From the UHGV virus genome UHGV-0199485: DNA of 11,900 bases; one strand, written 5' to 3'. Origin of the DNA: a virus. A program made the position numbers and the translations under genes. Under the pieces are notes generated by a model. That model had not been told where the DNA came from. It made no database searches and was given only the letters and a program-made list of their open reading frames with translations. This document shows positions 1 to 11,900 of the stretch, piece after piece (positions within the stretch are counted from its first letter, which is position 1; the number at the start of each line of letters is the position of its first letter).

Positions 1-1524
1 ATGAAACGTGTAATCAGCTACATCAGATTCAGTTCTGAGCGACAAGCCAAAGGCGACTCACTACGCAGACAGTCTAAGATGGTTAATGACTGGCTTAAGG
101 CTCATCCTGAGTACTACCTTGACCAAGATTTATCTTTTCGTGATTTAGGTGTGAGTGGATTCACTGGTAAGCACTTGAAAGGTGGCTTAGGTGACTTTTT
201 AACCGCTATCGAGAAAGGGCTTGTTAAAGCTGGTGATACGCTCTTGATAGAATCTCTTGACCGTCTCTCACGTCAGGATATTGATATTGCTTCTGAGCTA
301 TTACGTCGTATCTTAAGGGCTGGTGTCGATATAGTCACACTGAGCGATGGTGAACATTACACACGAGAAAGTTTAAAAGACCCGTTAGCTCTGATTAAGT
401 CCATCTTGATTATGCAAAGAGCACATGAAGAGAGTCTGCGTAAGGCTGAGCGTATACAAGCTGCATGGGATGCAAAGAAAGAAGCTGCTAAAGCTGGTAT
501 CAAGATTTCTAAGCGTTGTCCTGCATGGCTTAAGCTTAATGATGACCGTAAGACCTTCTCTGTGATACCTGAGAAGGTAGAAACTGTGAGGAGATGCTTT
601 CAATTACGGTTAGAGGGTAAGTCTATTTGGGAGATTGTCAGGGCTCTTAATGATGAAGGTCACCAGACACTTAACCAGTACAAAGCAGGTAAGTTTGGTC
701 AAACCTCAGTGCAAGACCTTCTGAAAAATCGCTCTGTAATTGGTTACTTCACACCTAAAGGCTGTGAGGAGATAGCTGGTTATTTCCCCCCTATCATCCC
801 TGAGACTGATTTCTACAAAGTCCAGCAACTATCATATTCTCGTTACGGTAGAAAACCTGCTTCAGATAAACCATTGAGTGTGAATCTCTTTAAAGGTGTT
901 ATCCGTTGTTCTGAATGTGGTCATGCTTTGATTATCACAGGCTTTAGCGATACAAGAAACGGGATTTATCGTTGTCCTCTTCGTAATGAAAACCGTTGTA
1001 GTGCTAAAGGACTTTCACGTAAGCAAACCGATGGTACATTGCTTGCCCTGCTATCCCGTATAGACCGATTTGATAGCGATATGACGAATACCATAGACAC
1101 ACTGAAGCTACACCGTGAACACATCTCAAGCAATATTGAAAAGCTGGTACAGCTATCACTTGAAATTGAAGACTTGTCCGCTATTACCAGCAAACTAAAA
1201 CAGTTAAAAGGTGAGCTATCACAGGTTAATGCGGATATCGAGAAGGAGACACAACGCCTTAAATCTATTGATGTTGGTTGTTTGTCTGATTGTGACTTGA
1301 CTACAAAGGCGGGAAGGATTGAAGCACAACTGATAATCAAAAGTGCTGTTAAAGAGGTCATTTTAAATACTGCTAAACGTCGCTGTAAAGTGACTTTTCA
1401 CAACGGTAAGGTAATTGACTTACCTATAACAGAAGACCCCTCAGAGAATGTTACAGAGGCTATACAGTCGCTTTCTGAAGTCACTGAGAGGGGTTTAATA
1501 GATGTTGATGAGGTTATCATATAG
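1..1524 (+). CDS. Large serine recombinase (integrase-type)
   Basis: 507-aa ORF starting at window base 1. N-terminus MKRVISYIRFSSERQ places the resolvase-fold catalytic serine about 10 residues from the start. A long C-terminal extension follows, with Cys pairs (CSECGH ... YRCPLRNENRC, zinc-ribbon-like) and a coiled-coil tail, which is the large serine recombinase architecture. RBS and promoter lie outside the window. Confidence 0.85.
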   Translation: MKRVISYIRFSSERQAKGDSLRRQSKMVNDWLKAHPEYYLDQDLSFRDLGVSGFTGKHLKGGLGDFLTAIEKGLVKAGDTLLIESLDRLSRQDIDIASELLRRILRAGVDIVTLSDGEHYTRESLKDPLALIKSILIMQRAHEESLRKAERIQAAWDAKKEAAKAGIKISKRCPAWLKLNDDRKTFSVIPEKVETVRRCFQLRLEGKSIWEIVRALNDEGHQTLNQYKAGKFGQTSVQDLLKNRSVIGYFTPKGCEEIAGYFPPIIPETDFYKVQQLSYSRYGRKPASDKPLSVNLFKGVIRCSECGHALIITGFSDTRNGIYRCPLRNENRCSAKGLSRKQTDGTLLALLSRIDRFDSDMTNTIDTLKLHREHISSNIEKLVQLSLEIEDLSAITSKLKQLKGELSQVNADIEKETQRLKSIDVGCLSDCDLTTKAGRIEAQLIIKSAVKEVILNTAKRRCKVTFHNGKVIDLPITEDPSENVTEAIQSLSEVTERGLIDVDEVII

Positions 1525-1538
1525 TTGAGCTTCTATCG

Positions 1539-2312
1539 TCAGTAGCGCTTGTTAGGATTAACAGACAGCCTCTTCAAAACATTACCTGCACCAGCATTAT
1601 TAAGCACTTTCGAAGCTTGCCCATTAGCGGCATCTGAGAAGGTGCTTTTTCCATTCTCAACTCTGACACTTTTACTACAATTGATACGGGCTTGAAGTTG
1701 CTCATTAGAAAGTTCACTCGCAGAGCGATTATATAGCTCCTGACACATCAACATACCATTACCTAAACTTGTCGTAGTGTTCCCAGTGTTCTTTTTACTG
1801 GTAGCACCACCATCATTCGTGGTAGCGGTCTTGCCAGTAGCAGATGAAATATCAGTTTGCCCTACAATGGCTTTGAAGTTAATTTCCTGAAAAGTTAACT
1901 GGATTCTCAGACCATTTGAAATACCAACATCTTTAGAGGCTTTAAAGCTCGTGATAATGGAATCATCAATTTTAATTCCGTCTTTACAGATGACTGAAAT
2001 AATCTGCTTCTGGTCACGCCAGCTTTCAAGAGTGTCGATGAAGTTTTCTACTAATTGCCCCTGACGAGTTAATAATAAGCTACCTTCATAGCCAACTACA
2101 ACGACACCACTAATAGTGATTGTTCTGGGTGCTCTTTGCACATTATCTGTGACGGTTTGCCCTGATTGCATGTTCTGTGTAGTAACCTGCATAGGGCTGT
2201 CAAATTCCATGTTTTCAGTAGCTGATAAGGTTAAGAAGGCATCTACATTGTCTCTTAAGTGGAAATAGATGCCGTCTTTGCCAGTGTAACGAAGCTGATT
2301 AGTGTAAATCAT
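1539..2312 (-). CDS. Putative phage tail protein directly downstream of the tape-measure gene (distal-tail-protein position)
   Basis: ORF track gives 264 aa from an in-frame TTG at 2333. The first ATG (2312-2310) is preceded by AAGGAG at 6-nt spacing, so a 257-aa product from 2312 is preferred. Beta-rich N-terminal half, then a Thr/Asn/Gly-rich linker. The functional call rests on gene order after the tape-measure gene, not on a recognised motif. Confidence 0.5.
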
Positions 2313-2388
2313 TAAATTCTCCTTTGATTTCAAAGACTTAGTGCATTTTAATCATTTTTAACCAAGCCTTTGATATTTAAGTGTTTTA

Positions 2389-2458
2389 TCTGTTAAGCGT
2401 GAGCTACGTGAAAAATAATTTTTGGTGGGTATATCTGTTCAGGAGATTTCACGTAGCA
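2389..2458. repeat. Copy A of a 70-bp conserved dyad element (candidate activator-dependent promoter or recombination-type site)
   Basis: tctgttaagcgtgag-CTACGTGAAA-33 bp-TTTCACGTAG-ca. 68/70 identical to copy B (4534-4603). The 10-bp inverted-repeat arms are at 2404-2413 and 2447-2456. It lies between the tape-measure stop (2470) and the start of the next leftward gene (2312). Confidence 0.8.
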
Positions 2459-2469
2459 TTCGACTATTA

Positions 2470-4518
2470 TCAATCATCTTCTGGGAATGATGAACTTAAT
2501 AGCGTAGCTTCTGCGTATTGGTCGTAGATATTACTGCTAAAGGTCATAAAGCTGGTTTCATCTGGTTTAATGGCAACTTCACCACCAAGTGAAACTTTCA
2601 CAGGCTCCTGAATACGTTTGCTCAAAGCACTAATTTCATCTCTCAGGCTTTGGATATCCGTATTCGTTAATGCCGCATCTTGTCTCATGGTGATTAATTC
2701 TGGATGCTGGAAGTTAGCAAGATTCATAGCTGCACTATTAAACCAACCTTTCACATCGTCCATAGTAAATACTGGCTTAAGTCCAGATTCTTTAGCTAAC
2801 TCTGGTAATTTAGCTTGTGCTTCCATTCGTTCAGGTGTAGAGGCTAATCTTTCATAACCTGCATAGAGAGCGCTACCAGCTAATAGCATATTCCCAAGAT
2901 TCAGTCTTGATGGTTTCCCATTCTTTCTATTCACGTTATCCGCTGTAGTATCAGCAACCTGACCTAATCTTGTGATAGCAGTCATAAGCCCGTAAATACT
3001 TCTGGTTACACCAACAACTTTATTTACAGCAATAACACCAGCCAAGACTTTTAAACTATTAATCAAGCCAGAACCTAAAGCATCAACAACTTTCTTTTGT
3101 TCATCGGTTAAACCACGGTAAGCTAATGTCACCTCATCGAAGAACGCTCTTACCCTGTAACTGATATCAGTCAGGCTATCCACACCACTTGACATATCAG
3201 TCATCAAGCTACCAAGAGATTCACCAAGACTTTTACCGCTTCCACCTAAACTGTTTAAAAGCGTTGTTAAGCTTCGTGTGAAATCTTGCAGACCATTTTC
3301 AGAACCTCTGAAAATATCCGTTAATGAATTGTTCCAAGTATTCTTTAAGTTCCCTAACATTGTCTGCGTAGAGTCCTGAATAGCTTTCCAGCCACCTCTT
3401 GAATTAATCTGTGAACCAAGTTCTTTAGCAAACTTAGGGAGTGCATCAGAGGCTTTAACATCACCATTTTTCATCTTATCGAAAAGCTGTTTTTCAGTCA
3501 GACCTAAAGCCTTTGCAAATGCCTGAGTAGCACCCGGTAAAGCTTCAGATAGTTGCCCCTTAAGCTCTTCAGCCATCACCTGACCCTTAGAAGCCATCTG
3601 CGATACTGCGGTTAATGCTCTTTGAATCTGCTCATCTGAACGACCCATTAAACGAGCATATCCAGTTAAGTTTTTAAATAACTCTTCTGCCCCTTCAAGA
3701 CCCATCGTGTTCTTTGCAGATGCACCAAATGAAGCAAATTGCGCCTGTGTTTCGGTTGTGTCCATACCAGTAATTTGAGTTAAATCTTGAATGAACTTTT
3801 TGACCTGTGTACTTTGGTCACCGAATACGAAATCAATACTTCTTTCCGATGATGCACGTTGAAGGCCAACTTCCATAATCTTCTGATAAGCGGATAGTAC
3901 AGCCTGAAAGCTGATAAATGCACCTGCTGTTTTAACTGCTGCTGAACTCAAACTATCAAGACTATTAGCTGCTTTGTCACCGTTAATGCTGGTGGATGTA
4001 TGACCTCTGGCTTTAGCAATTGCTTCTCGTACACTTGAATTTAGTTTAGCAAGGGCTTCATTGAATTTTGAATTATCCATTGACCCAGCTTTAGCAGATA
4101 GCCCGTAAAACTGAGATTTGATGTATTTCTGCAAAATAGGGTCAAAGCCTTTTAACTTGCTCATGTTAGCCTGATAAGCTGCTCTTACTGCTCTATCACC
4201 TGTAACCCTTCTTGGCCTCGATTGTCTTGGCGGATTAATAACGTCATTAACCTGACTTGTGAAACGGAAAGCTTTAGTATTTTTTGCTCTAGCTTCCAGA
4301 CGGTCAAAAGTCTTATTAATTTTTCCTTCCATTGACTTCAAAGAAGCCGTTAAATTGCTGTCAAGTTTCTTGGTATCGACCTTAAACGCCCTATTCAAAT
4401 TACGTTCAATTCTTTGTGCTGACTGCAAAGCTGCCTTTTCAACTCTTTGCAAGCCCTTAACAACGTTCTCGCTGAAGCCTAGCTCAACGATAAAACTATC
4501 AACTGTGAATTTGCTCAT
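2470..4518 (-). CDS. Phage tail tape measure protein
   Basis: 682-aa ORF. The central segment ...SDEQIQRALTAVSQMASKGQVMAEELKGQLSEALPGATQAFAKALGLTEKQLFDKMKNGDV... fits the conserved tape-measure domain pattern. Helical N-terminal region and Gly/Ser-rich stretches are also typical. GAGGTGA lies about 10 nt upstream of the ATG. Confidence 0.75.
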   Translation of the reverse strand: MSKFTVDSFIVELGFSENVVKGLQRVEKAALQSAQRIERNLNRAFKVDTKKLDSNLTASLKSMEGKINKTFDRLEARAKNTKAFRFTSQVNDVINPPRQSRPRRVTGDRAVRAAYQANMSKLKGFDPILQKYIKSQFYGLSAKAGSMDNSKFNEALAKLNSSVREAIAKARGHTSTSINGDKAANSLDSLSSAAVKTAGAFISFQAVLSAYQKIMEVGLQRASSERSIDFVFGDQSTQVKKFIQDLTQITGMDTTETQAQFASFGASAKNTMGLEGAEELFKNLTGYARLMGRSDEQIQRALTAVSQMASKGQVMAEELKGQLSEALPGATQAFAKALGLTEKQLFDKMKNGDVKASDALPKFAKELGSQINSRGGWKAIQDSTQTMLGNLKNTWNNSLTDIFRGSENGLQDFTRSLTTLLNSLGGSGKSLGESLGSLMTDMSSGVDSLTDISYRVRAFFDEVTLAYRGLTDEQKKVVDALGSGLINSLKVLAGVIAVNKVVGVTRSIYGLMTAITRLGQVADTTADNVNRKNGKPSRLNLGNMLLAGSALYAGYERLASTPERMEAQAKLPELAKESGLKPVFTMDDVKGWFNSAAMNLANFQHPELITMRQDAALTNTDIQSLRDEISALSKRIQEPVKVSLGGEVAIKPDETSFMTFSSNIYDQYAEATLLSSSFPEDD

Positions 4519-4533
4519 TGTTCATATTTCACC

Positions 4534-4603
4534 TCTGTTAAGCGTGAGCTACGTAAAAAATAATTTTTGGTGGGTATATCTGTTCAGAAGATTTCACGTA
4601 GCA
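4534..4603. repeat. Copy B of the 70-bp conserved dyad element
   Basis: Same sequence as copy A with two substitutions (left arm CTACGTAAAA; core CAGAAGA vs CAGGAGA). It ends 15 bp upstream of the tape-measure ATG and directly follows a terminator-like hairpin. Confidence 0.8.
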
Positions 4604-4610
4604 CACATAC

Positions 4611-4653
4611 AAAAAAGGGAGAAACTACCGAATAATATCGATAATCTCTCCCC
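4611..4653 (-). terminator. Candidate rho-independent terminator for the 234-aa/71-aa transcription unit
   Basis: On the minus strand a 6-bp GC-rich stem (4617-4622 pairing with 4647-4652, GGGAGA/TCTCCC) with a 24-nt loop is followed by U6 (complement of A6 at 4611-4616). It sits about 50 nt after the 71-aa gene stop. The large loop weakens the call. Confidence 0.45.
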
Positions 4654-4701
4654 GTGTTATAGATTCGATAGAACCTATCTCATACACCCAACCAATCTTT
4701 T

Positions 4702-4917
4702 TTAATGCCTGACAAGATAATGTAATTCCGTTTCACCTATGATTTGAGCATCAGAAGGGATACGGTCAATACACCATTTTGGAATCTTGCGTGTTTTTGG
4801 TTTGTGTGAGGTGATAATTTGATGTTTGGTTTTAATTCTTAAGGCTGGCTTAGTTTGTAACTTTAAGTTTTCACAAACAGACTTAATAGTTTCATAGCGT
4901 TCTGTTAAATCAATCAT
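4702..4917 (-). CDS. Hypothetical small basic protein (71 aa)
   Basis: GAGGTG lies 4-5 nt upstream of the ATG. A 22-nt gap after the preceding gene suggests co-transcription. Lys/Arg-rich; no recognisable motif. Confidence 0.45.
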   Translation of the reverse strand: MIDLTERYETIKSVCENLKLQTKPALRIKTKHQIITSHKPKTRKIPKWCIDRIPSDAQIIGETELHYLVRH

Positions 4918-4939
4918 TCATCACCTCACATATGCATAA

Positions 4940-5644
4940 TTAAACAGCCTTGCTAAATTCTCGTGGAACACTCAGAAAATCATTGAAGCTGATAATCTGT
5001 GCCAACTCTTGACGGTACTCCTTAGCCAGCGCTTGATGGTCACTAATCAGCTTAGCCAGTCTTGATTTCAGCAAATTAATCTCATTTTCTCTTGCTTTCA
5101 TCAGTTTCTCTTTGGCAATTTCTTCAAGCTCAGCTTGTGATTTATCAGCAACAATTAGAGACAGTTGATGTGGCGCTCTGATGGCCCTTTCCGTACGAAT
5201 AACCCTTTGACCTTCTGGTAAATCTGCAATCACTTTACCAATCTCTACAGGGTCATACCCCCAACCGTCACGGTCTAGTCGAGAGAAATAAGCATAAGAA
5301 TTGGTTTGAAGCTCCATCAAAATAGCCATTTCGTCGATTTCGTCTTCAAGCTTGGACTGAATTTTCTCGTAAACACTTCTCATTGCTTCTTGAGAGTCTT
5401 TAATAGCTTGGAAATATCGGCGTTGCAGCTTCAGTTTCAAATCAAGCTCACATTCCTCATTCATCGAAAAATCAATTTCAACTCTTGGAATCTCGAGTGG
5501 TTCTGGTGGAATATATGGACCTTTATTTACTTCGTGTGATTCCCGCCAAGCTCTATCAAAAGATTCACGCAAACTTAATTCGTGAATATCAAGTGCACTT
5601 GGTTTGTTTTCGATAATCATTTCATGTTCATCACGGATAGACAT
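4940..5644 (-). CDS. Hypothetical acidic, predicted helical/coiled-coil protein (234 aa)
   Basis: AGAGGA lies about 9 nt upstream of the ATG. Glu-rich, with a C-terminal heptad-like segment (ELEEIAKEKLMKARENEINLLKSRLAKLISDHQALAKEYRQELAQI). No catalytic motif recognised. Confidence 0.6.
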   Translation of the reverse strand: MSIRDEHEMIIENKPSALDIHELSLRESFDRAWRESHEVNKGPYIPPEPLEIPRVEIDFSMNEECELDLKLKLQRRYFQAIKDSQEAMRSVYEKIQSKLEDEIDEMAILMELQTNSYAYFSRLDRDGWGYDPVEIGKVIADLPEGQRVIRTERAIRAPHQLSLIVADKSQAELEEIAKEKLMKARENEINLLKSRLAKLISDHQALAKEYRQELAQIISFNDFLSVPREFSKAV

Positions 5645-5676
5645 TATTATTTTTCCTCTTCTAAGATAATTTATGT

Positions 5677-5762
5677 TTCAGTTTTTAAAAAGCACACCTG
5701 ACAGCCTACGAACTTAGAAGAGACTTAAAAGCGTTTGCCAAGTGTGCTTTTTAAAAACTGAA
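5677..5762. promoter_or_regulatory. Perfect 21-bp inverted repeat separated by 44 bp (hairpin or operator candidate)
   Basis: TTCAGTTTTTAAAAAGCACAC (5677-5697) and its exact reverse complement GTGTGCTTTTTAAAAACTGAA (5742-5762). It lies about 30 nt upstream of the 234-aa gene start codon, inside the predicted leader. Confidence 0.5.
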
Positions 5763-6010
5763 TAGCCCTAGATAATTTCTTATAAAGGGCCATTCATAAG
5801 GTGAAGAAATTAAAAGAACATCTAAAGGATTCAAATGAATGAACAAAGATTTTTGATATGGCCTATTTAGTGTGGGCTAAATAAGCCATGACGAAAAGCA
5901 TTGCACCTTTCAGAATAACTATCCCTAGATGTAGATGGAATTGTTGAAAGAAATAAGAGAGAATTGCTCTCCCTATAGACTTCGGATAGAAGACTATCCT
6001 CATATATACA

Positions 6011-6039
6011 ATTATGTCATGCTCAAGGTTATTTGTCAA
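6011..6039 (-). promoter_or_regulatory. Candidate sigma70-type promoter reading leftward toward the 234-aa gene
   Basis: Minus strand TTGACA (6039-6034), 17-bp spacer, CATAAT (6016-6011). Confidence 0.35.
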
Positions 6040-6140
6040 CAGCTTTTTAACAGATTGGTAACATCAATTCTTATTTACTGTGTTACCTGCCAAGCAACCA
6101 ACAAATAAACCCAAAACTGTCCATAATACAATTAACGTCA

Positions 6141-6464
6141 TTAGTGAACCCTCATAGAATCCGCAACCAAAATATTGTCAGCGTACAGGATTGTCACAGC
6201 ACCTTTCAGAAATTGCTCTGGGGAAATATCGTATTTGTTCGTTTGCTCGATAACAAGCCTTTTCATGCTTGAGTCGCTAACGGGAAACATAAAACGTGGT
6301 TCACCAGTTTCAATCCCCTGAATAAAATCTTCAATTGCTTCTGAGTTTTCAGCCATCAGTTTCAACAGCCTGTCAAAGTCAATTGACACACCGGAATCAG
6401 TGAAAGCCTGTACCATCATGGCGGTGTCGGTATCAATAAAAATCTGTAATGGAAAGTTGTTCAT
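6141..6464 (-). CDS. Hypothetical acidic protein (107 aa)
   Basis: AGAGGA lies about 9 nt upstream of the ATG. A 15-bp palindrome AGATAG-ttt-CTATCT (6483-6497) sits immediately upstream of the RBS. No recognisable motif. Confidence 0.55.
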   Translation of the reverse strand: MNNFPLQIFIDTDTAMMVQAFTDSGVSIDFDRLLKLMAENSEAIEDFIQGIETGEPRFMFPVSDSSMKRLVIEQTNKYDISPEQFLKGAVTILYADNILVADSMRVH

Positions 6465-6651
6465 TTCTTAAAATCCTCTATGAGATAGTTTCTATCTAAT
6501 CCTATAAAACACATCTCAGACCTGCCAAAATAGCCATTCTGAGGCCAATAACCATGCGGGTTACAGAGGGAGTTGCACTGGCTGGTAAGGTAATTTATCA
6601 AATTAAGGTGCAACTCTGCCTGTAAAGTGCATTCTACCGTTACTTAGATGG

Positions 6652-7077
6652 TTATTTTGAATTGTCTTTATTAATCAATGATTTAACGTAGAAATACTGC
6701 CTCCGTGAAATACCATATTTTTCTGTGATGTATCGCTGAGATTGACCAGCATTTATGGCCTGAGTGATATCATCACGGTTATAGCGGTTACCACGGGATT
6801 TATATTTGTCACCATCCACATCTTCTGATGTATTGAAGTCTTCAATCAGCTTAATTGCATCGTGAAGGTCATCTTCTGAGGCATAATCGAAGGTATGGAT
6901 AATCTCAAAATCACCAGTATCTGCTGGTGCATTCTTCCATCTGGAGAAGCGGGATTTTAATTGCTGGTGTGTGAAAGGTTCAGCATTACGAGTTAAATCT
7001 TTCCATGTTCCGCTATTCTCACGGACAAGGTGGCCTCTATGGCGATAAAACGCATGATAATCAAATGTGCATAGCAT
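6652..7077 (-). CDS. Putative transcriptional regulator with C-terminal helix-turn-helix (Mor/C-like or resolvase-HTH-like)
   Basis: C-terminal segment RDDITQAINAGQSQRYITEKYGISRRQYFYV fits a DNA-binding HTH. The start codon overlaps the stop of the upstream gene (TAATG, 7075-7079), implying translational coupling. Confidence 0.55.
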   Translation of the reverse strand: MLCTFDYHAFYRHRGHLVRENSGTWKDLTRNAEPFTHQQLKSRFSRWKNAPADTGDFEIIHTFDYASEDDLHDAIKLIEDFNTSEDVDGDKYKSRGNRYNRDDITQAINAGQSQRYITEKYGISRRQYFYVKSLINKDNSK

Positions 7078-7367
7078 TAAACCCCCAGCCTATCCGCTAA
7101 TTGATGGACCTTTGCGCTTAACACCTGAATCATTGAGCAACCTGCTACTGCGGACTGTGCTTTGAGTAGTTCCAGTTGGTCCGTTGTGATTCTGATGGCC
7201 TTAGAACCCTCTGCAACACCCTTAACATTATCAAAAGGGGTAAGGGTTACCGGCTCTTTTAGAAGCTCTCCAACAAGCGCCGTATGCTTCATATCAGGGT
7301 ATTTGGCTTTGATTGCTGCCAGTCGTTCAAATGCCTCTGGCAAAAGGCGCGTAACTGTGTGAGTCAT
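7077..7367 (-). CDS. Ribbon-helix-helix-type DNA-binding protein (96 aa)
   Basis: AAGGAG lies 8 nt upstream of the ATG. C-terminal half KAIRITTDQLELLKAQSAVAGCSMIQVLSAKVHQLAD fits the beta-strand / helix / G-x-S turn / helix pattern of RHH repressors; the N-terminal half is RHH-like but less canonical. First gene downstream of the leftward promoter. Confidence 0.5.
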   Translation of the reverse strand: MTHTVTRLLPEAFERLAAIKAKYPDMKHTALVGELLKEPVTLTPFDNVKGVAEGSKAIRITTDQLELLKAQSAVAGCSMIQVLSAKVHQLADRLGV

Positions 7368-7402
7368 TGTAAAATCTCCTTAAATCTCTTACTCATACTA
7401 CA

Positions 7403-7453
7403 ATCTTAACATTTATTTAACATGTTGTCAACATCTCATTTACATGATATTAT
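7403..7453. promoter_or_regulatory. Divergent back-to-back promoters sharing a 13-bp palindromic operator
   Basis: Leftward: TTGACA (7431-7426), 17 bp, TAAGAT (7408-7403). Rightward: TTGTCA (7425-7430), 17 bp, TATTAT (7448-7453). The two -35 hexamers overlap inside the palindrome ATGTTG-t-CAACAT (7422-7434). Confidence 0.5.
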
Positions 7454-7503
7454 GGTTATAGGGGCTGATACAGGTGCTGTTTCCTTTCACAAAAGGAAAA
7501 TTA

Positions 7504-7680
7504 ATGCATGATTTTTTCACAGCAATTATTGAATCTCATCGTTTTAGCTCGTTGGGCTTTGCGGTATTTATTGTGCTATTGGTGTTTTGCGTTATGAATC
7601 GAGTCATTACAAAAAAGACAAAGCTTACAATTCGACTTAAACTTCTTCGTGTTGAGATAGAGATTTCAGTAAATAAATAG
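7504..7680 (+). CDS. Small predicted membrane protein (58 aa)
   Basis: ATG at 7504 is preceded by AAGGA at 6-nt spacing; the ORF track starts at an in-frame GTG at 7474. One hydrophobic segment (LGFAVFIVLLVFCVM) is followed by a basic tail. It is the only gene downstream of the rightward promoter. Confidence 0.4.
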   Translation: MHDFFTAIIESHRFSSLGFAVFIVLLVFCVMNRVITKKTKLTIRLKLLRVEIEISVNK

Positions 7681-7689
7681 CTGGTGGCC

Positions 7690-7986
7690 TTACCGGCACT
7701 TTCCCTTGATAATATTGGTGGCCCTCAGATTACCGGGGTCACCGTCTTTTAATCGTAGCTGGTGGACTGAATCCCAGATATCATAATGATACAGCACTGC
7801 AAACCTCAAAGCGTCAATCTTTAAATCTGTCACACCATCAAAAAAGAAATAATTCTTTCCTTCCTTCTTCGGTCGAATCCGGTAAACCTCCCCATGAGTA
7901 TCTTTCAGAAGATGACCTTCACGAGAAATGCTGTAGCGCCTTAATAGATAATCTTTGTATCGTTTTTCACCGTTATATTCTCTCAT
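7690..7986 (-). CDS. Hypothetical 98-aa protein translationally coupled to the replication initiator (weak HNH-like motif)
   Basis: Its ATG overlaps the rep stop (ATGA, 7983-7986) and GGAGGT lies 5 nt upstream. C-terminal VHQLRLKDGDPGNLRATN loosely resembles an HNH-type motif but lacks the canonical residue pair, so a nuclease assignment is tentative. Confidence 0.5.
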   Translation of the reverse strand: MREYNGEKRYKDYLLRRYSISREGHLLKDTHGEVYRIRPKKEGKNYFFFDGVTDLKIDALRFAVLYHYDIWDSVHQLRLKDGDPGNLRATNIIKGKCR

Positions 7987-8897
7987 TGGATACCTCCACC
8001 TGCATAGTACATTTTAGGCTTAACCCTTTGCTTCTTATTTTCACTAACTACTTTCTTCTTTGGTGTGAAAGAAAAGTCATCATCGTCACCATCATCAAAG
8101 TCATCGAGGTCATTAACCTTGTTCTTTAGCTTCGCCATTTCAATGCGTGATTTAATCTCTGCTTTGCGTTGTGCTTTTTTAATAGCCTCTTCACGCTCTG
8201 ACTCTTCATCAAGGTAATCATCGAAGGGGTCCATCTCATCATCAGTGGCGGGGCACTGTGTGTTTTTATGGTCACTATCAACATTCACATCAGAGATTTT
8301 ATCCTCCTCTAAGTCAGATGTTTTAGAAGCCTCTTTAGTAGCTTCACTATCAAGGTCAGATTCATTCATAGAGAGAAAATCATTTAATTCATCCAAAGAA
8401 AGAAAGTCATCTTCTTTATTGTTATTAATAAGTTCTTTCTTGTTATTACTGTTATTATACGTGTCAAAGATTTTGACTGACTGAGTAAAAAATTTTGACT
8501 CAGTGGGTAAAGAATTTTGACTCAGTGGGTCATCTTTCTTGACTGACTGAGTAACTTTAGACTCCAGCTTTGCCTTTCTGGCTTCCTTAGCTGTAAGCTC
8601 TGTTAAAACTTCCGGTACTTCATCAAGTGAATAAACTTTAATAACACACTGATTGCTTGCAACGTTAGTTTTCTTGATTAAACCATGTGCCTCAAGTCGT
8701 TTCATACATGCAATCACGGATGTTCTTGTGATTCCAGCATACTGACCAAGATGAGCATATGAAGGGGTATAATATTGCCCCTTATCGTGATAAAACTTCT
8801 GTTCATTCAACATGACAGTGTAAATAATACGGTCGGCAGCTTTAACGCCATTAGTCATCTGATAAATACGGTCATCAAACATGTGGAATTTTTCCAT
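7983..8897 (-). CDS. Replication initiator protein (winged-helix, RepA_N-like N-terminal domain) with acidic C-terminal tail
   Basis: Preferred start is ATG 8897-8895 (MEKFHMFDD...), preceded by AAGGAAAA at 7-nt spacing; the ORF-track start at 8954 has no RBS. N-terminal ...DRIIYTVMLNEQKFYHDKGQYYTPSYAHLGQYAGITRTSVIACMKRLEAHGLIKK... resembles the DNA-binding domain of RepA_N-type initiators. Iterons and an AT-rich tract lie inside the coding sequence. The C-terminus is a poly-Asp/Glu tail (DDFDDGDDDDF). Confidence 0.6.
   Translation of the reverse strand: MEKFHMFDDRIYQMTNGVKAADRIIYTVMLNEQKFYHDKGQYYTPSYAHLGQYAGITRTSVIACMKRLEAHGLIKKTNVASNQCVIKVYSLDEVPEVLTELTAKEARKAKLESKVTQSVKKDDPLSQNSLPTESKFFTQSVKIFDTYNNSNNKKELINNNKEDDFLSLDELNDFLSMNESDLDSEATKEASKTSDLEEDKISDVNVDSDHKNTQCPATDDEMDPFDDYLDEESEREEAIKKAQRKAEIKSRIEMAKLKNKVNDLDDFDDGDDDDFSFTPKKKVVSENKKQRVKPKMYYAGGGIQ
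8471..8554. repeat. Four iterons at exact 22-bp spacing (candidate origin of replication inside the rep gene)
   Basis: TTTTGACTGACTGAGTAA (8471), TTTTGACTCAGTGGGTAA (8493), TTTTGACTCAGTGGGTCA (8515), TCTTGACTGACTGAGTAA (8537). An AT-rich tract (about 8395-8465) flanks them on the low-coordinate side. On the coding strand they encode a low-complexity linker. Confidence 0.55.
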
Positions 8898-9159
8898 TAT
8901 ATTTTCCTTTTTAAAAATAAAACAAAGAAAGGGCTGACCACGTATAGTGACCAACCCCAGAGGGAGTGAATTAATTAGAAGATGGACTGATAAAGGAACT
9001 CAGAAGCCTGAGCGATTACGCGAGTATTAACAGCAAAAGGAAAAGCCTTGATTGAATAAGAGGCCGTGAAAATCTGTCAATACCCTGACGCCTCCCAACG
9101 TTGTAACCTCTTAATGTTCTGAGTTCTTTTATCAGCCCATATAGAAACTATAACAGATG

Positions 9160-9214
9160 TGATTATAAATTGCAACAATTATTTCACAGAATAATTACTG
9201 TTTGATTATAAATT
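9160..9214. repeat. Two exact 12-bp direct repeats TGATTATAAATT in the non-coding control region
   Basis: Copies at 9160-9171 and 9203-9214; on the minus strand each contains TATAAT. Function unknown (operator or -10-like boxes facing the rep gene). Confidence 0.4.
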
Positions 9215-9763
9215 AAGCAATCAAGCTAAAGGGTATTGACAAAGGGCTTGACAAGATTTTACCCTTTTAAAAGATACTTAAAAGATTCCGTTAAACAGGG
9301 TTTTCTTTCTGGTTTCTTCTCTCTCTTAAAAGCCTTTTAAGAATCCTATATAGAAGCAGTAAGTCTCAAAAACTCTGTGGGATAATTTCTAAAACACATC
9401 TCTCAGACTTCACTAGACGCATTCTAAGCCCCTAAATCGGGTAACTCTGGCAATCACCTTAAGCACTCTGAAAATAGCTTCAAAACTCGCTACAGAGCTT
9501 CCTGTGAACTGGTCTATGAATAGCCTAAACTGGTTGATAGGTTTGATTAAAATCTGTACAGATAATATCCAGCCTCTAATTTTTTTATAAAATCGTATTA
9601 GTCCCTCTTCATTTCTCTTCCACCGAATTTTTCGAAAATATCACAAGGCAGTGTATAGCTGCTAAGTACCCGCCACACCAGCTATGTGACCCCCTTTGCA
9701 GAATTTTAAAATATCTATTGACTTTCTATGTGAACTGTTATAAAGACCGCTCCATCTCTTAGG

Positions 9764-9856
9764 CGTACCGATATAGCATACTAAAAAGGTATAGCTAACC
9801 CCCTGTAAAAACCATACCGATTAGCCTTGTAAAACACTTTATCGGTACGTTATACT
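9764..9856 (+). promoter_or_regulatory. Candidate recombinase promoter overlapped by symmetric TACCGAT motifs (possible res-like or autoregulatory site)
   Basis: TTGTAA (9827-9832), 18 bp, TATACT (9851-9856). Inverted repeat CGTACCGAT (9764-9772) / ATCGGTACG (9841-9849), plus a third TACCGAT at 9815-9821. Confidence 0.35.
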
Positions 9857-9891
9857 TAACTCATCAAATGAGTAAGGCAAATGAGTATATT

Positions 9892-10434
9892 ATGGCTAAC
9901 ATCGGTTATGTTCGAGTTTCAACAATCCAGCAGATTACAGACCGTCAACTTGAAGGGGTCGTACTGGATAAGGTATTTACTGATAAAGCATCTGGGAAGA
10001 ATACAGACCGTCCACAACTAAAGGCTATGCTCGATTATGTTCGTGAAGGTGACACTATCCATGTACACGACCTGTCACGTTTAGGGCGTTCTACCGTGGA
10101 TGTATTAACGCTGGTGGATAAACTTTCACAGAGAGGTATCAAGGTTCACTTTCACAAAGAAGGTCTGATAACTGGTGACGATAACCCCACGTCTAAGATG
10201 ATTCTCACAATCTTTTCAGCAGTGGCTGAAGCTGAACGTAAAATGATGCTTGAGCGTCAACGAGAAGGCTATGAAGCTGCTAAAGCTGCTGGTCGTGTAG
10301 TTGGAAGGGGTAACGGTAAAGCGATTGACAGAGAAGGTATTAAAGCTGCTCTTGCTGCTGGTAGTTCAATCGCTAAAGTAGCCGCTCAATTCAACGTTGC
10401 CAAGTCAACTGTACAGCGTATTAAAGCTGAATAA
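9892..10434 (+). CDS. Small serine recombinase (resolvase / DNA invertase family)
   Basis: N-terminus MANIGYVRVSTIQQ with the catalytic serine, a resolvase catalytic core (..DLSRLGRS..), a Gly-rich linker and a C-terminal HTH (SIAKVAAQFNVAKSTVQRIKAE). The ORF track starts 8 codons upstream at 9868; 9892 is preferred from the family N-terminal pattern and promoter position. Neither start has a strong RBS. Confidence 0.85.
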   Translation: MANIGYVRVSTIQQITDRQLEGVVLDKVFTDKASGKNTDRPQLKAMLDYVREGDTIHVHDLSRLGRSTVDVLTLVDKLSQRGIKVHFHKEGLITGDDNPTSKMILTIFSAVAEAERKMMLERQREGYEAAKAAGRVVGRGNGKAIDREGIKAALAAGSSIAKVAAQFNVAKSTVQRIKAE

Positions 10435-10460
10435 TTTCTCATCACCTATATAGATTCATG

Positions 10461-10484
10461 GCCTCCTTAATTGGGGGCTTTTTT
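10461..10484 (+). terminator. Rho-independent terminator after the small serine recombinase gene
   Basis: GCCTCC (10461-10466), loop TTAATT, GGGGGC (10473-10478) with one G-U pair, followed by T6 (10479-10484). It lies 27 nt after the stop codon. Confidence 0.6.
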
Positions 10485-10490
10485 GTATCC

Positions 10491-10582
10491 TCTAAGCGTG
10501 TACTACGTGATGATTCGGATAAGAATTATCCTCATAAAATCTCCTGAACACTTACCCACCCTCAGAAATAACTTTCACGTAG
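10491..10582. repeat. Copy C of the dyad element, with the core in opposite orientation and 29 bp longer
   Basis: Shares TAAGCGTG-nn-CTACGTGA (10493-10510) and TTTCACGTAG (10573-10582) with copies A/B. Its 62-bp core contains AAATCTCCTGAACAC-TTACCCACC, the reverse complement of the A/B core GGTGGGTATATCTGTTCAGGAGATTT. Confidence 0.7.
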
Positions 10583-10655
10583 GAAATCGTTAAGGGTTTT
10601 ATAGTTACACTATGTGACCAACTGCATGAATAGCGTTATATATCCCTGTATATAG

Positions 10656-10671
10656 CACTATATATATAGTG
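10656..10671. promoter_or_regulatory. Perfect 16-bp palindrome CACTATATATATAGTG (operator-like)
   Basis: Exact palindrome in the intergenic region between element copy C and the 3' end of the 277-aa gene. A TATAGCA motif also recurs upstream of the recombinase (about 9771-9795). Confidence 0.3.
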
Positions 10672-10896
10672 TCTGGAGAGGAACGACTAACACGATACAG
10701 TTTACCCTGAAAAGAGACTTCACAGATTCTTTATATATTTCAATGAGTTAGGATAAAAAGGGACTATACCGATACTGCATAGAATCTGTGTAAAACTGCT
10801 TAGATATTTGAAGAAATACCGTTAAATTGCATAGTCATAGGGGTTGGAACAAGCCCAACTACACCTGTTTATGTCCTGTTATTTACAGGCATAGCA

Positions 10897-11730
10897 TTAT
10901 TGGTTAATTAATTCATTCGACTCTATATTATTACCTTTTTCTTTTTCCTTTTTAATTTTAGACTCAACCATATCTAACATTTTTAATGCCTGTGTTGAAG
11001 TTAGCTCTTTCTTTTGTCGTAGCGCGTTACGTATGGTAGAAGCTTCAATATCAGAAACTGTTAAAAGTTCTTCTACCCTACTCTTCAATTGCTGTAATGA
11101 ACGGCTATTATCAACTTTAAAGAAATCATTCATTACATCAAGTGAGGCAACAATCAAATCCTGTAGTCTCTCTTTTTCTTTTGCTATATTTTCAATAGTT
11201 TGTTTTTCAATAGATACTGACTCTTTTAAGTTGCTAATCTCTTTAAGCATCTGTTTCCTTGCTGTCTCAAGGTCTTCTGTGACCAACTCTTCACGCTTAC
11301 CACGCTCTACTTCCGCTTTAATATCAGCATCAATTTTAGCATTTTCTTTCTCTTCTTCTCTGGCAACCCGAACCTTTAACCCCGTTAACCTGATTGAATT
11401 AAGGTATTCCTTTTCTTTTGAAAGATAAATATTTTCACTGTGTTTATCTGTAGCCCATTTTTGAGCAAGAGAAAGTAACCATTGAGCATAAGGAGTAATA
11501 ACAGCTAGCACACTTCCAAAAAAGACAGGTGCTAACAGATAATGTACATAAAAATATTCCTGAGACAGAATATAATCTATTCGAAACTTAACAGGAGCAT
11601 CACTCATAAAGAGCATTGCCAAGTTAGGCCAATTGAACCATACCCATGCAAGAATGATATATCCCCATAATGGGCTTTTAATCCTATCGTTTATTGCTTG
11701 CATAGTAGAATCTAACCATCCATCACTCAT
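10897..11730 (-). CDS. Membrane-anchored coiled-coil protein (277 aa), function unknown
   Basis: GAGGG lies 6 nt upstream of the ATG. Two N-terminal hydrophobic helices (WGYIILAWVWFNWPNLAMLF; VHYLLAPVFFGSVLAVITPYAQWLL) are followed by about 180 aa of Glu/Lys-rich heptad-like sequence. Confidence 0.6.
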   Translation of the reverse strand: MSDGWLDSTMQAINDRIKSPLWGYIILAWVWFNWPNLAMLFMSDAPVKFRIDYILSQEYFYVHYLLAPVFFGSVLAVITPYAQWLLSLAQKWATDKHSENIYLSKEKEYLNSIRLTGLKVRVAREEEKENAKIDADIKAEVERGKREELVTEDLETARKQMLKEISNLKESVSIEKQTIENIAKEKERLQDLIVASLDVMNDFFKVDNSRSLQQLKSRVEELLTVSDIEASTIRNALRQKKELTSTQALKMLDMVESKIKKEKEKGNNIESNELINQ

Positions 11731-11806
11731 AGCTAACCCTCGGAAATCTTATCTTTCTGTCTATCATAACCACAAGCATCACCTTTAGGAACCATCTGAA
11801 ACGGGA

Positions 11807-11854
11807 GGTGTATTTAGACCTTGCTAATCTTCATCAGACACGTTTAAATACACC
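11807..11854. other. 13-bp imperfect inverted repeat with 22-bp spacer upstream of the 277-aa gene
   Basis: GGTGTATTTAGAC (11807-11819) and GTTTAAATACACC (11842-11854), one mismatch. A possible -10 TATGAT (complement of 11763-11768) lies between it and the gene start. Confidence 0.3.
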
Positions 11855-11900
11855 ACCTAAAGCGATACAATCGCGCTATTAGTTTTTATGGTGGTAAAGA

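Follow-up and report, generated by a model that had tools for sequence, protein, structure and literature searches.

The question raised by this locus is whether the gene of a replication initiator can also carry the origin at which its own product acts. The locus lies in the virus genome UHGV-0199485, of which a stretch of 11,900 nucleotides, herein called the window, was analysed as a whole; it represents nearly the whole of an island of about 12.2 kb. The gene in question (7983..8897, minus strand) encodes a protein of 304 amino acids in which a disordered linker joins a winged helix to an acidic C-terminal module, and within its coding sequence there are four repeats spaced by 22 bp together with an adjoining AT-rich tract. 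We consider it probable, at roughly 0.8 as judged by sequence comparison, that the repeats and the tract constitute the vegetative origin of the island, located inside the gene of its cognate initiator. This reading is carried by the repeat with its spacing and its position, by a constraint on the repeat cores at the DNA level, by a plan kept across five types of initiators, and by a protein fold of the initiator type.

Repeats and AT-rich tract within the gene

The repeat units are 18 bp long and start at positions 8471, 8493, 8515 and 8537, with start-to-start distances of 22, 22 and 22. As numbered by the direction of transcription, iteron 1 occupies 8537-8554 (TCTTGACTGACTGAGTAA on the window strand and TTACTCAGTCAGTCAAGA on the gene strand), iteron 2 occupies 8515-8532 (TTTTGACTCAGTGGGTCA and TGACCCACTGAGTCAAAA, respectively), iteron 3 occupies 8493-8510 (TTTTGACTCAGTGGGTAA and TTACCCACTGAGTCAAAA) and iteron 4 occupies 8471-8488 (TTTTGACTGACTGAGTAA and TTACTCAGTCAGTCAAAA). 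The units are of two kinds: the outer pair (iterons 1 and 4) agrees at 17 of 18 positions and so does the inner pair (iterons 2 and 3), while an outer and an inner unit share 13-15 of 18. On the gene strand iteron 2 shows the partial dyad TGAC-N7-GTCA. In the gene, the array covers nt 344-427, namely codons 115-143.

In a blind scan over periods of 15-30, the strongest four-copy array in the window was the one with period 22 from 8471, with 45/54 matches, whereas 200 dinucleotide-preserving shuffles gave a mean of 29.7 matches (standard deviation 1.1, maximum 34). Moreover, Tandem Repeats Finder reported a period of 22 with 3.0-3.3 copies, a separate repeat search found four copies with a spacing of 22/22/22, and searches with the unit consensus sequences returned 3 matches each where 0.03 were expected, the array being their sole location in the window. 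Directly downstream of the iterons by transcription lies the AT-rich tract (8395..8462), a candidate DNA-unwinding element with an AT content of 77.9%, which places it at the 99.5th percentile among windows of its size in the sequence. The AT maximum of the gene is the 40-nt window from gene nt 441, with 82% AT against a gene mean of 62.7%. No DnaA box and no IHF consensus site was found at the origin region. The first-pass annotation, made from the letters alone, had claimed four 18-bp iterons at exactly 22-bp spacing at 8471-8554 and an AT-rich tract beside them inside the initiator coding sequence; both are present at the claimed place, and the array exceeds every one of the 200 shuffles.

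A repeat at the protein level was considered as well and rejected, the period being no multiple of 3 and the units lying in three frames. The reading frames of the successive units are 1, 2, 0 and 1, and the encoded peptides VTQSVKK, DDPLSQN, LPTESK and FTQSVKI are unrelated to each other.

The constraint acting on the array was examined with two diverged loci, L026 and L027; the E. coli loci first collected that carry the window's own type of initiator (type A below) are nearly identical in their N-terminal halves. L027 is a diverged relative ("type A2") with 88% identity to the window protein over the N-terminal 115 residues. In the coding part of the winged helix (nt 1-343), the identity between the two genes is 79.9%, and the 69 differences are distributed over codon positions 3/1/2 as 49/14/6, a pattern that indicates purifying selection at the protein level. 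In the array, the 14-nt cores are identical at 51 of 56 positions (91%) and the spacers at only 17 of 32 (53%), with differences at codon positions 3/2/1 of 7/7/6, that is, with no codon bias. As the cores are kept, the spacers have diverged and codon bias is absent, the constraint tracks the 22-bp register rather than the codons. In L027 the spacers have changed in a concerted way, reading AAGAAAGT or AAGAAACT after units 1-3 and GAAACT after unit 4, which points to homogenisation among the repeats. In the AT tract the window and L027 are 97.9% identical. In the Escherichia albertii copy L026, the winged-helix part has 91.5% identity to the window and the array 98.9%, and the AT tract is the same throughout (100%).

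The initiator protein and its five types

The open reading frame (ORF) at 7983-8897 on the minus strand starts with MEKFHMF, is preceded by an AAGGA ribosome-binding site 8 nt upstream, and has the same start as its annotated homologues. In an AlphaFold model built from 15 sequences, the winged helix spans about residues 10-100 with a predicted local distance difference test (pLDDT) score of 86-94, and it comprises helices at 20-38, 47-54 and 58-70 and a beta hairpin at 74-88; it lies in the N-terminal DNA-binding domain (residues 1-115; 8553..8897, minus strand), which is the candidate specificity module. Disorder is predicted (pLDDT below 50) for residues 125-164, for which most of the iteron array and the AT tract code; after them come short helices at 168-179 and 231-259 and disordered, acidic tails.

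The C-terminal part is acidic, and its DNA (7983..8418, minus strand, including the helix 231-259) is a module common to types A, B and C. Near the C-terminus, at residues 263-277 (about 8067-8111, minus strand), there is a nearly invariant acidic and aromatic motif DLDDFDDGDDDDFSF, with L264, D265, F267, D268, D269, D273 and D274 as invariant residues (L-D-x-F-D-D-x-x-x-D-D); after it come a basic stretch and a conserved KPKMY(Y/F)AGGG end. The motif may resemble the acidic C-terminal tip of bacterial SSB, and the module is presumed to be the part recruiting partners.

By PHROG profiles, the window protein (E 1e-10 to 5e-8) and the proteins of types B and C are all placed with "replication initiation protein / O-like" families. 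With Pfam at E up to 1, only sub-threshold winged helix-turn-helix models are hit by the window protein (HTH_Crp_2, DnaD_N at 1.3e-3, MarR_2), and the type C protein rises above the cut-off of HTH_36; neither NCBIfam nor PADLOC gave a match for the initiator or for the unannotated ORFs, and phmmer with the single initiator protein gave no meaningful match among PDB sequences. The best fold match in the PDB is 4ro3, with a Foldseek E of 5.7e-5 and a template modelling (TM) score of 0.69, normalised to the target, over 113 columns, and the same entry (4ro3_A) is the best PDB match of the family sequence profile (alignment A2; E 2.8e-4, residues 24-96). The next Foldseek matches are 4pql, 4pt7, 4pta and 5kbj (E 7e-5 to 1e-3, TM 0.52-0.56 of target), among which 4PQL and 5KBJ belong, by their PDB titles, with the RepA_N initiators like the other two. 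4RO3 is the N-terminal domain of RepA from the Vibrio cholerae satellite phage-inducible chromosomal island-like element (PLE), while 4PTA and 4PT7 represent RepA_N initiators of staphylococcal plasmids (PMC7145576). The viral fold matches are replication initiators too, including a "replication protein O". The family is narrow: 1.84 billion representatives yielded only 19 clusters at E ≤ 1e-3. Iteron plasmid initiators of the Rep_3 type (the pi, RepE and TrfA class) match the Rep_3 profile or have a pair of winged-helix domains in tandem, and their 19-22-bp iterons lie outside the gene; here no Rep_3 profile matched, the model has a single winged helix, and the iterons are inside the gene.

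Many relatives in E. coli match the window gene in its 3' half only, with the DNA match ending in the AT tract. Their 5' halves are homologous but have diverged into three types, A, B and C, with 35-45% protein identity to each other. In blastn against the window gene, the alignments of the type B and type C genes end at query positions 436-453, and from gene nt 480 on, types A and B have 394 nt in common without a difference. Type A has the repeat of the window with period 22, type B has ACCCAACCAGAATTTGGTTACCT with period 23 and the dyad AACCA-N5-TGGTT, and type C has GACAAAATGACACCACTACCAGT, also with period 23, and the dyad GTGACA-AAA-TGTCAC. The arrays of the three types occupy the same place in the gene, and each is followed by an AT maximum of 80-85% AT. 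Two more distant types, D and E, whose proteins are 25-29% identical to that of the window, carry 3.3-3.9 copies of a distinct 22-24-bp repeat, again followed by the AT maximum. Altogether five diverged types share one plan, namely a winged helix, about four repeats with a period of 22-24 and an AT tract, and the sequence of the repeat is specific to the type. In support of this pairing, each of 25 loci out of 25 combines an N-terminal type with the repeat core belonging to it, in part as a matter of linkage. Shorter distant relatives of 201-225 residues, P0133 (L031) and P0139 (L032), have no tandem array in or beside the gene; as far as these sequences tell, the putative in-gene origin goes only with the long two-module proteins and is not universal in the wider family.

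The AT tract contains a 15-mer, AACAAGAAAGAACTT (8430..8444, minus strand), a candidate binding or loading site that occurs as a single copy in the window. The longest exact word shared among types contains it in each comparison made (16 nt for types A-D, 15 nt for A-E, 20 nt for D-E). Since its reading frame differs in type E, where it is read as EQERTFK instead of NKKELI, the 15-mer is an element at the DNA level. It was not found in the Felixounavirus genome or in the lambda ori region.

Placing the repeats inside a gene has its cost. With units of 22 or 23 bp, the loss of a single one frameshifts the initiator, and such one-unit deletions occur in 3 of the 26 sampled loci: L022 (type A, 22 bp; gene at 1235-2181), L013 (type C, 23 bp; 1235-2153) and L024 (type C, 23 bp; 2980-3925). 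In two of these loci the annotation records a frameshifted pseudogene. In L013, moreover, the palindromic centre of the last unit (about 1720-1735) is inverted from GTGACAAAATGTCAC to GTGACATTTTGTCAC, a change that a hairpin-mediated loop flip would produce. The initiator of the window itself lacks 72 bp (24 codons, EEESLKKG...CDIKEDDF) which are present in other type A genes; this linker deletion, at about 8404-8419 (gene nt 479), is in frame and is flanked on each side by a direct copy of TAAAGAAGATGACTTT.

Known in-gene origins, proposed mechanism and alternatives

Phage lambda provides one of the closest layouts. Lambda O has 299 residues and the initiator here 304; both have four iterons in mid-gene, annotated at gene nt 349-433 in lambda O and lying at nt 344-427 here; in both, the AT maximum is at gene nt 441, downstream of the iterons by transcription, and the iterons and the AT tract encode the linker that joins the N-terminal DNA-binding domain to the C-terminal partner domain. 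The lambda iteron TCCCTC-N5-GAGGGA has the same form as the dyads of types B and C, and type A has a partial dyad. Both proteins hit two O-like PHROG families, which points to a remote relationship (phrog_678 at 4.8e-8 here and 1.7e-35 for lambda O; phrog_345 at 2.4e-4 and 5.2e-17). In lambdoid phages the N-terminal domain and the iterons vary as a unit by module exchange, and here too they vary jointly on a constant C-terminal half, the DNA match breaking in the AT tract.

However, the two systems differ in several respects. Lambda O has no BLASTP similarity to the initiator, and the model Phage_rep_O (PF04492) matched neither the window protein at E up to 1 nor types B and C, whereas the lambda O control gave 5.7e-36. 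The C-terminal domain of lambda O is unrelated to the acidic, mostly disordered C-terminal half found here, and O comes from a lambdoid phage, not from a 12-kb serine-recombinase island. In lambda the gene P for the helicase loader, to whose product the C-terminal domain of O binds, follows directly after O; its position after the initiator is held here by a 98-residue ORF (7690-7986, minus strand) that overlaps the stop codon of the initiator (ATGA) and has no family match in Pfam, PHROG, NCBIfam or PADLOC. In most relatives inspected, an ORF of 96-98 residues is annotated at this position; it has 59 residues in L026, is frameshifted in L015, and is missing in the truncated L014.

The RepA_N plasmid initiators, such as pSK41 Rep and pTZ2162 RepA, offer a second comparison. 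In pSK41, Rep has 319 residues, and its N-terminal domain of 120 residues binds four Rep boxes in the middle of the rep gene, where the ori DNA codes for a linker that the Rep protein can do without (PMC5703833). The initiator here resembles pSK41 Rep in the number and central in-gene position of the sites, its corresponding segment is predicted to be disordered, and its model matches the DnaD-like winged-helix fold of the RepA_N N-terminal domains, including that of a Rep-DNA complex. No Pfam match to RepA_N (PF06970) was obtained at E up to 1. The C-terminal domain of pSK41 Rep is a compact five-helix DnaD-like domain, in contrast to the predicted acidic and largely disordered one here, and RepA_N initiators belong to Gram-positive plasmids, unlike this Gram-negative chromosomal island. 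On sequence grounds we regard the initiator as a probable new case of the DnaD/RepA_N/O-like winged-helix initiators with an in-gene origin, standing outside PF04492 and PF06970. The suggestion of the first-pass annotation that the origin lies in the gene as in lambda O and RepA_N plasmids is thus supported by the DNA-level repeat, the plan of five types, the positions close to those of the lambda origin and the matches to initiators. Its description of a linker flanked by a winged helix and an acidic C-terminus agrees with the model, in which residues 125-164 are disordered; and the unrelated DNA-binding family that it had named as a contrary outcome was not what PHROG, the fold and the PDB profile returned.

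Among characterised proteins, the N-terminal domain of PLE RepA is probably the closest, though distant, relative of the initiator; the signal is weak and sequence identity is only 18-20%. PLE and the island share integration by a large serine recombinase, and both lack a helicase and a primase of their own (PMC7145576 for PLE). PLE is tied to the lytic myophage ICP1 and the island apparently to Felix O1-like phages. However, the PLE origin (repeat 3 in NCR3) is non-coding and lies about 1 kb upstream of repA (PMC7145576), so that its iterons are outside the initiator gene and not inside as here. PLE RepA does not replicate without proteins of the helper phage ICP1 (PMC7145576); such a dependence is proven for PLE and only suspected for the island. 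Other integrated satellites, the Staphylococcus aureus pathogenicity islands and phage-inducible chromosomal islands (SaPI/PICI) and P4, have an iteron-bearing origin that fires after excision, and their initiators carry helicase and primase activities sufficient for autonomous replication (PMC7145576); neither domain was found in the initiator here.

On this basis we propose that dimers of the N-terminal winged helix would bind the four partly palindromic iterons and form a bent nucleoprotein complex, comparable to the O-some of lambda or the Rep-box complex of pSK41, which would destabilise the AT tract directly downstream. The acidic C-terminal module, constant across the specificity types, might then recruit the helicase and primase of another genome, either the host or, more likely, a helper phage, the latter being favoured because the island is without its own helicase and primase. 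Replication would take place after excision by the large serine recombinase. Binding, melting, recruitment of partners and timing in this scheme are what we infer. The first-pass annotation went further in supposing that the element replicates autonomously after excision. This part is doubtful, with no recognisable helicase, primase or loader in the island and with PLE RepA in need of its helper; it is the least secure of the claims because PLE RepA cannot fire without the ICP1 proteins. The annotation also placed an integrase beside the initiator: a large serine recombinase does bound the island, but it lies 6.4 kb away, and the nearer recombinase is a Hin-type invertase.

Several points weigh against an in-gene origin and should be set beside the evidence for it. 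The N-terminal type and the repeat core agree at 25 of 25 loci, an agreement confounded by their physical linkage at a distance of about 100 nt; the near identity of L026 and L027 to the window in the AT tract could come from recombination of the shared C-terminal module and not from selection; the dyad symmetry of the type A units is weak; and the initiator falls outside both comparator Pfam models (PF04492, PF06970). In addition, Pfam, PHROG, NCBIfam and PADLOC revealed no helicase, primase or loader in the island, and some copies of the gene are dead, as seen from the frameshifts in 3 of 26 loci. These frameshifting deletions, like the further linker indels including the 72-bp deletion in the copy of the window, would fit an array that is a relic or a slippage by-product in a low-complexity linker, or an island that is a decaying, non-replicating prophage remnant. 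We think this very improbable, considering that the cores are conserved and the spacers diverged, that the same plan recurs in five types with unrelated repeat sequences, that the protein appears to be under purifying selection, and that the island of about 12 kb keeps its gene order in L001 and L025, with at least part of it in 569 of 5426 E. coli genomes.

It is unlikely, though less so, that the repeats bind the same protein for regulation only (autorepression, handcuffing copy control or a transcription roadblock) and that the origin is elsewhere, for example in the gene-poor 970 bp at 8898-9867. The AT-richest spot of the window is in fact upstream of the initiator gene, at about 9149, iterons often serve initiation and control alike, and the PLE origin iterons are in the non-coding NCR3 and not in repA (PMC7145576). 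However, no further copy of the repeat exists in the window, 8898-9867 included; the repeats lie 340 nt within the gene and not at a promoter; in every type they have beside them an AT-rich tract, with a conserved word that does not depend on the reading frame; and the layout can be superimposed on two proven in-gene origins, those of lambda O and pSK41 Rep. Least probable of all seems a packaging site of the pac type or a recombination site, with a protein resembling a small terminase or a recombination directionality factor. The pac sites of P22, SPP1 and P1 are inside terminase genes, and among small terminases, too, there are winged-helix or helix-turn-helix N-terminal domains that bind repeats within their own gene; the island, having no recognisable terminase, needs some packaging signal. 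But the profile and fold matches are all replication initiators, with no terminase or excisionase among them, and an adjoining AT tract and a four-fold 22-bp phasing are features of origins.

An in-gene origin is textbook knowledge for lambda and RepA_N plasmids, and the layout will not surprise specialists. What the present case adds is a clear example from a Gram-negative chromosomal island with an initiator closest to PLE RepA; the five matched specificities of initiators and iterons on a common C-terminal module offer material for studying recognition, incompatibility and module exchange, and the frameshifts by single-unit slippage in 3/26 loci exemplify what the design costs.

The island and its possible relation to Felix O1-like phages

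The island interrupts the yecE (DUF72) gene in related E. coli chromosomes, with the large serine recombinase at its start; in L001, for example, it lies between two DUF72 halves. In the window this recombinase occupies 1..1524 (plus strand; Pfam Resolvase, Recombinase and Zn_ribbon_recom) and bounds the island. It is followed on the minus strand by a Dit-like tail or baseplate protein (1539-2333) and a tape-measure protein (2470-4518), then by a run of small ORFs without known family up to the initiator; beyond the initiator there are a small Hin-type invertase (9868-10434, plus strand) and a coiled-coil protein of 277 residues (10897-11730, minus strand). Two relatives, L001 and L025, were inspected over the whole island; each has about 12 kb of it with the same gene order.

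Related islands, whole or in part, are present in about 10% of the complete E. coli genomes (569/5426) and are chromosomal in every case; a scan of species-representative genomes added one further Escherichia locus only. In phage and plasmid collections, megablast with window positions 7600-9300 gave no match; among phages, neither tblastn with the initiator nor blastn with the origin fragment gave any; the IMG/VR scan and Rfam over the whole window were likewise negative; and literature searches found no published description of the island.

Upstream of the initiator, most relatives have a gene of a Dam-family (PF05869) N6-adenine methyltransferase at a distance of about 360 bp; in the window (8898-10434) and in L017, a gene-poor stretch and the opposite-strand Hin-type invertase stand in its place. 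A terminator-like hairpin with a T run (8930..8958, minus strand) is located 33 nt upstream of the initiator ATG, and the nearest promoter-like site on the initiator strand is at 9147-9175 (minus strand), about 250 nt upstream; expression of the initiator may require read-through of this hairpin.

The composition of the island is unusual in one tetranucleotide. GATC is absent, against about 40 expected by a first-order Markov model, in three independent islands (window 1-11900, L001 14883-27093 and L025 2416-14648), whereas the chromosome flanking the L001 island has 63 and 81 sites against 59 and 57 expected. The loci of distant relatives are also depleted, with 3 against 24 expected in L028 and 5 against 33 in L030. 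The Felix O1-like phage vB_EcoM_LNA1 (MZ311863, L033 and L034) has 0 GATC in 88,369 bp and a G+C content of 39%, the same as that of the island. Moreover, the Dit-like protein of the island shares 77.5% of its amino acids with a protein of this phage (92% at the nucleotide level over 551 bp), the tape-measure protein is 28.6% identical to its phage counterpart over the full length, and the two counterparts are adjacent and in the same order in the phage (11258-14286) as in the window (1539-4518).

Taken together, the shared genes, the GATC and G+C composition, the recombinase and the PLE-like initiator suggest that the island is an undescribed satellite or parasite of Felixounavirus phages. 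Since neither the iterons nor AACAAGAAAGAACTT are found in the Felixounavirus genome, the island does not borrow initiator sites from the phage. More tentatively, and at somewhat less than even odds, we may imagine a new family of E. coli satellites living on lytic Felix O1-like myophages as a counterpart of PLE and ICP1, with the in-gene origin as its replicon, with cassettes of winged helix and iterons (at least five specificities) set on a constant acidic module, and with the 15-mer loading the replisome of the helper and not that of the host. Whether so widespread an island, found in about a tenth of complete E. coli genomes in whole or part, is a satellite of these phages can now be asked of a concrete replicon.

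Some short likenesses to the phage are found in the non-coding parts of the window. The 131 nt at 9228-9358 have 69% identity to Felixounavirus DNA and include two TTGACA boxes, and the 27 nt at 9689-9715, directly before a promoter-like TTGACT, have 96%. At 10461-10487 there is a terminator hairpin, GCCTCC-N6-GGGGGC-T6, which resembles hairpins at two places of the phage.

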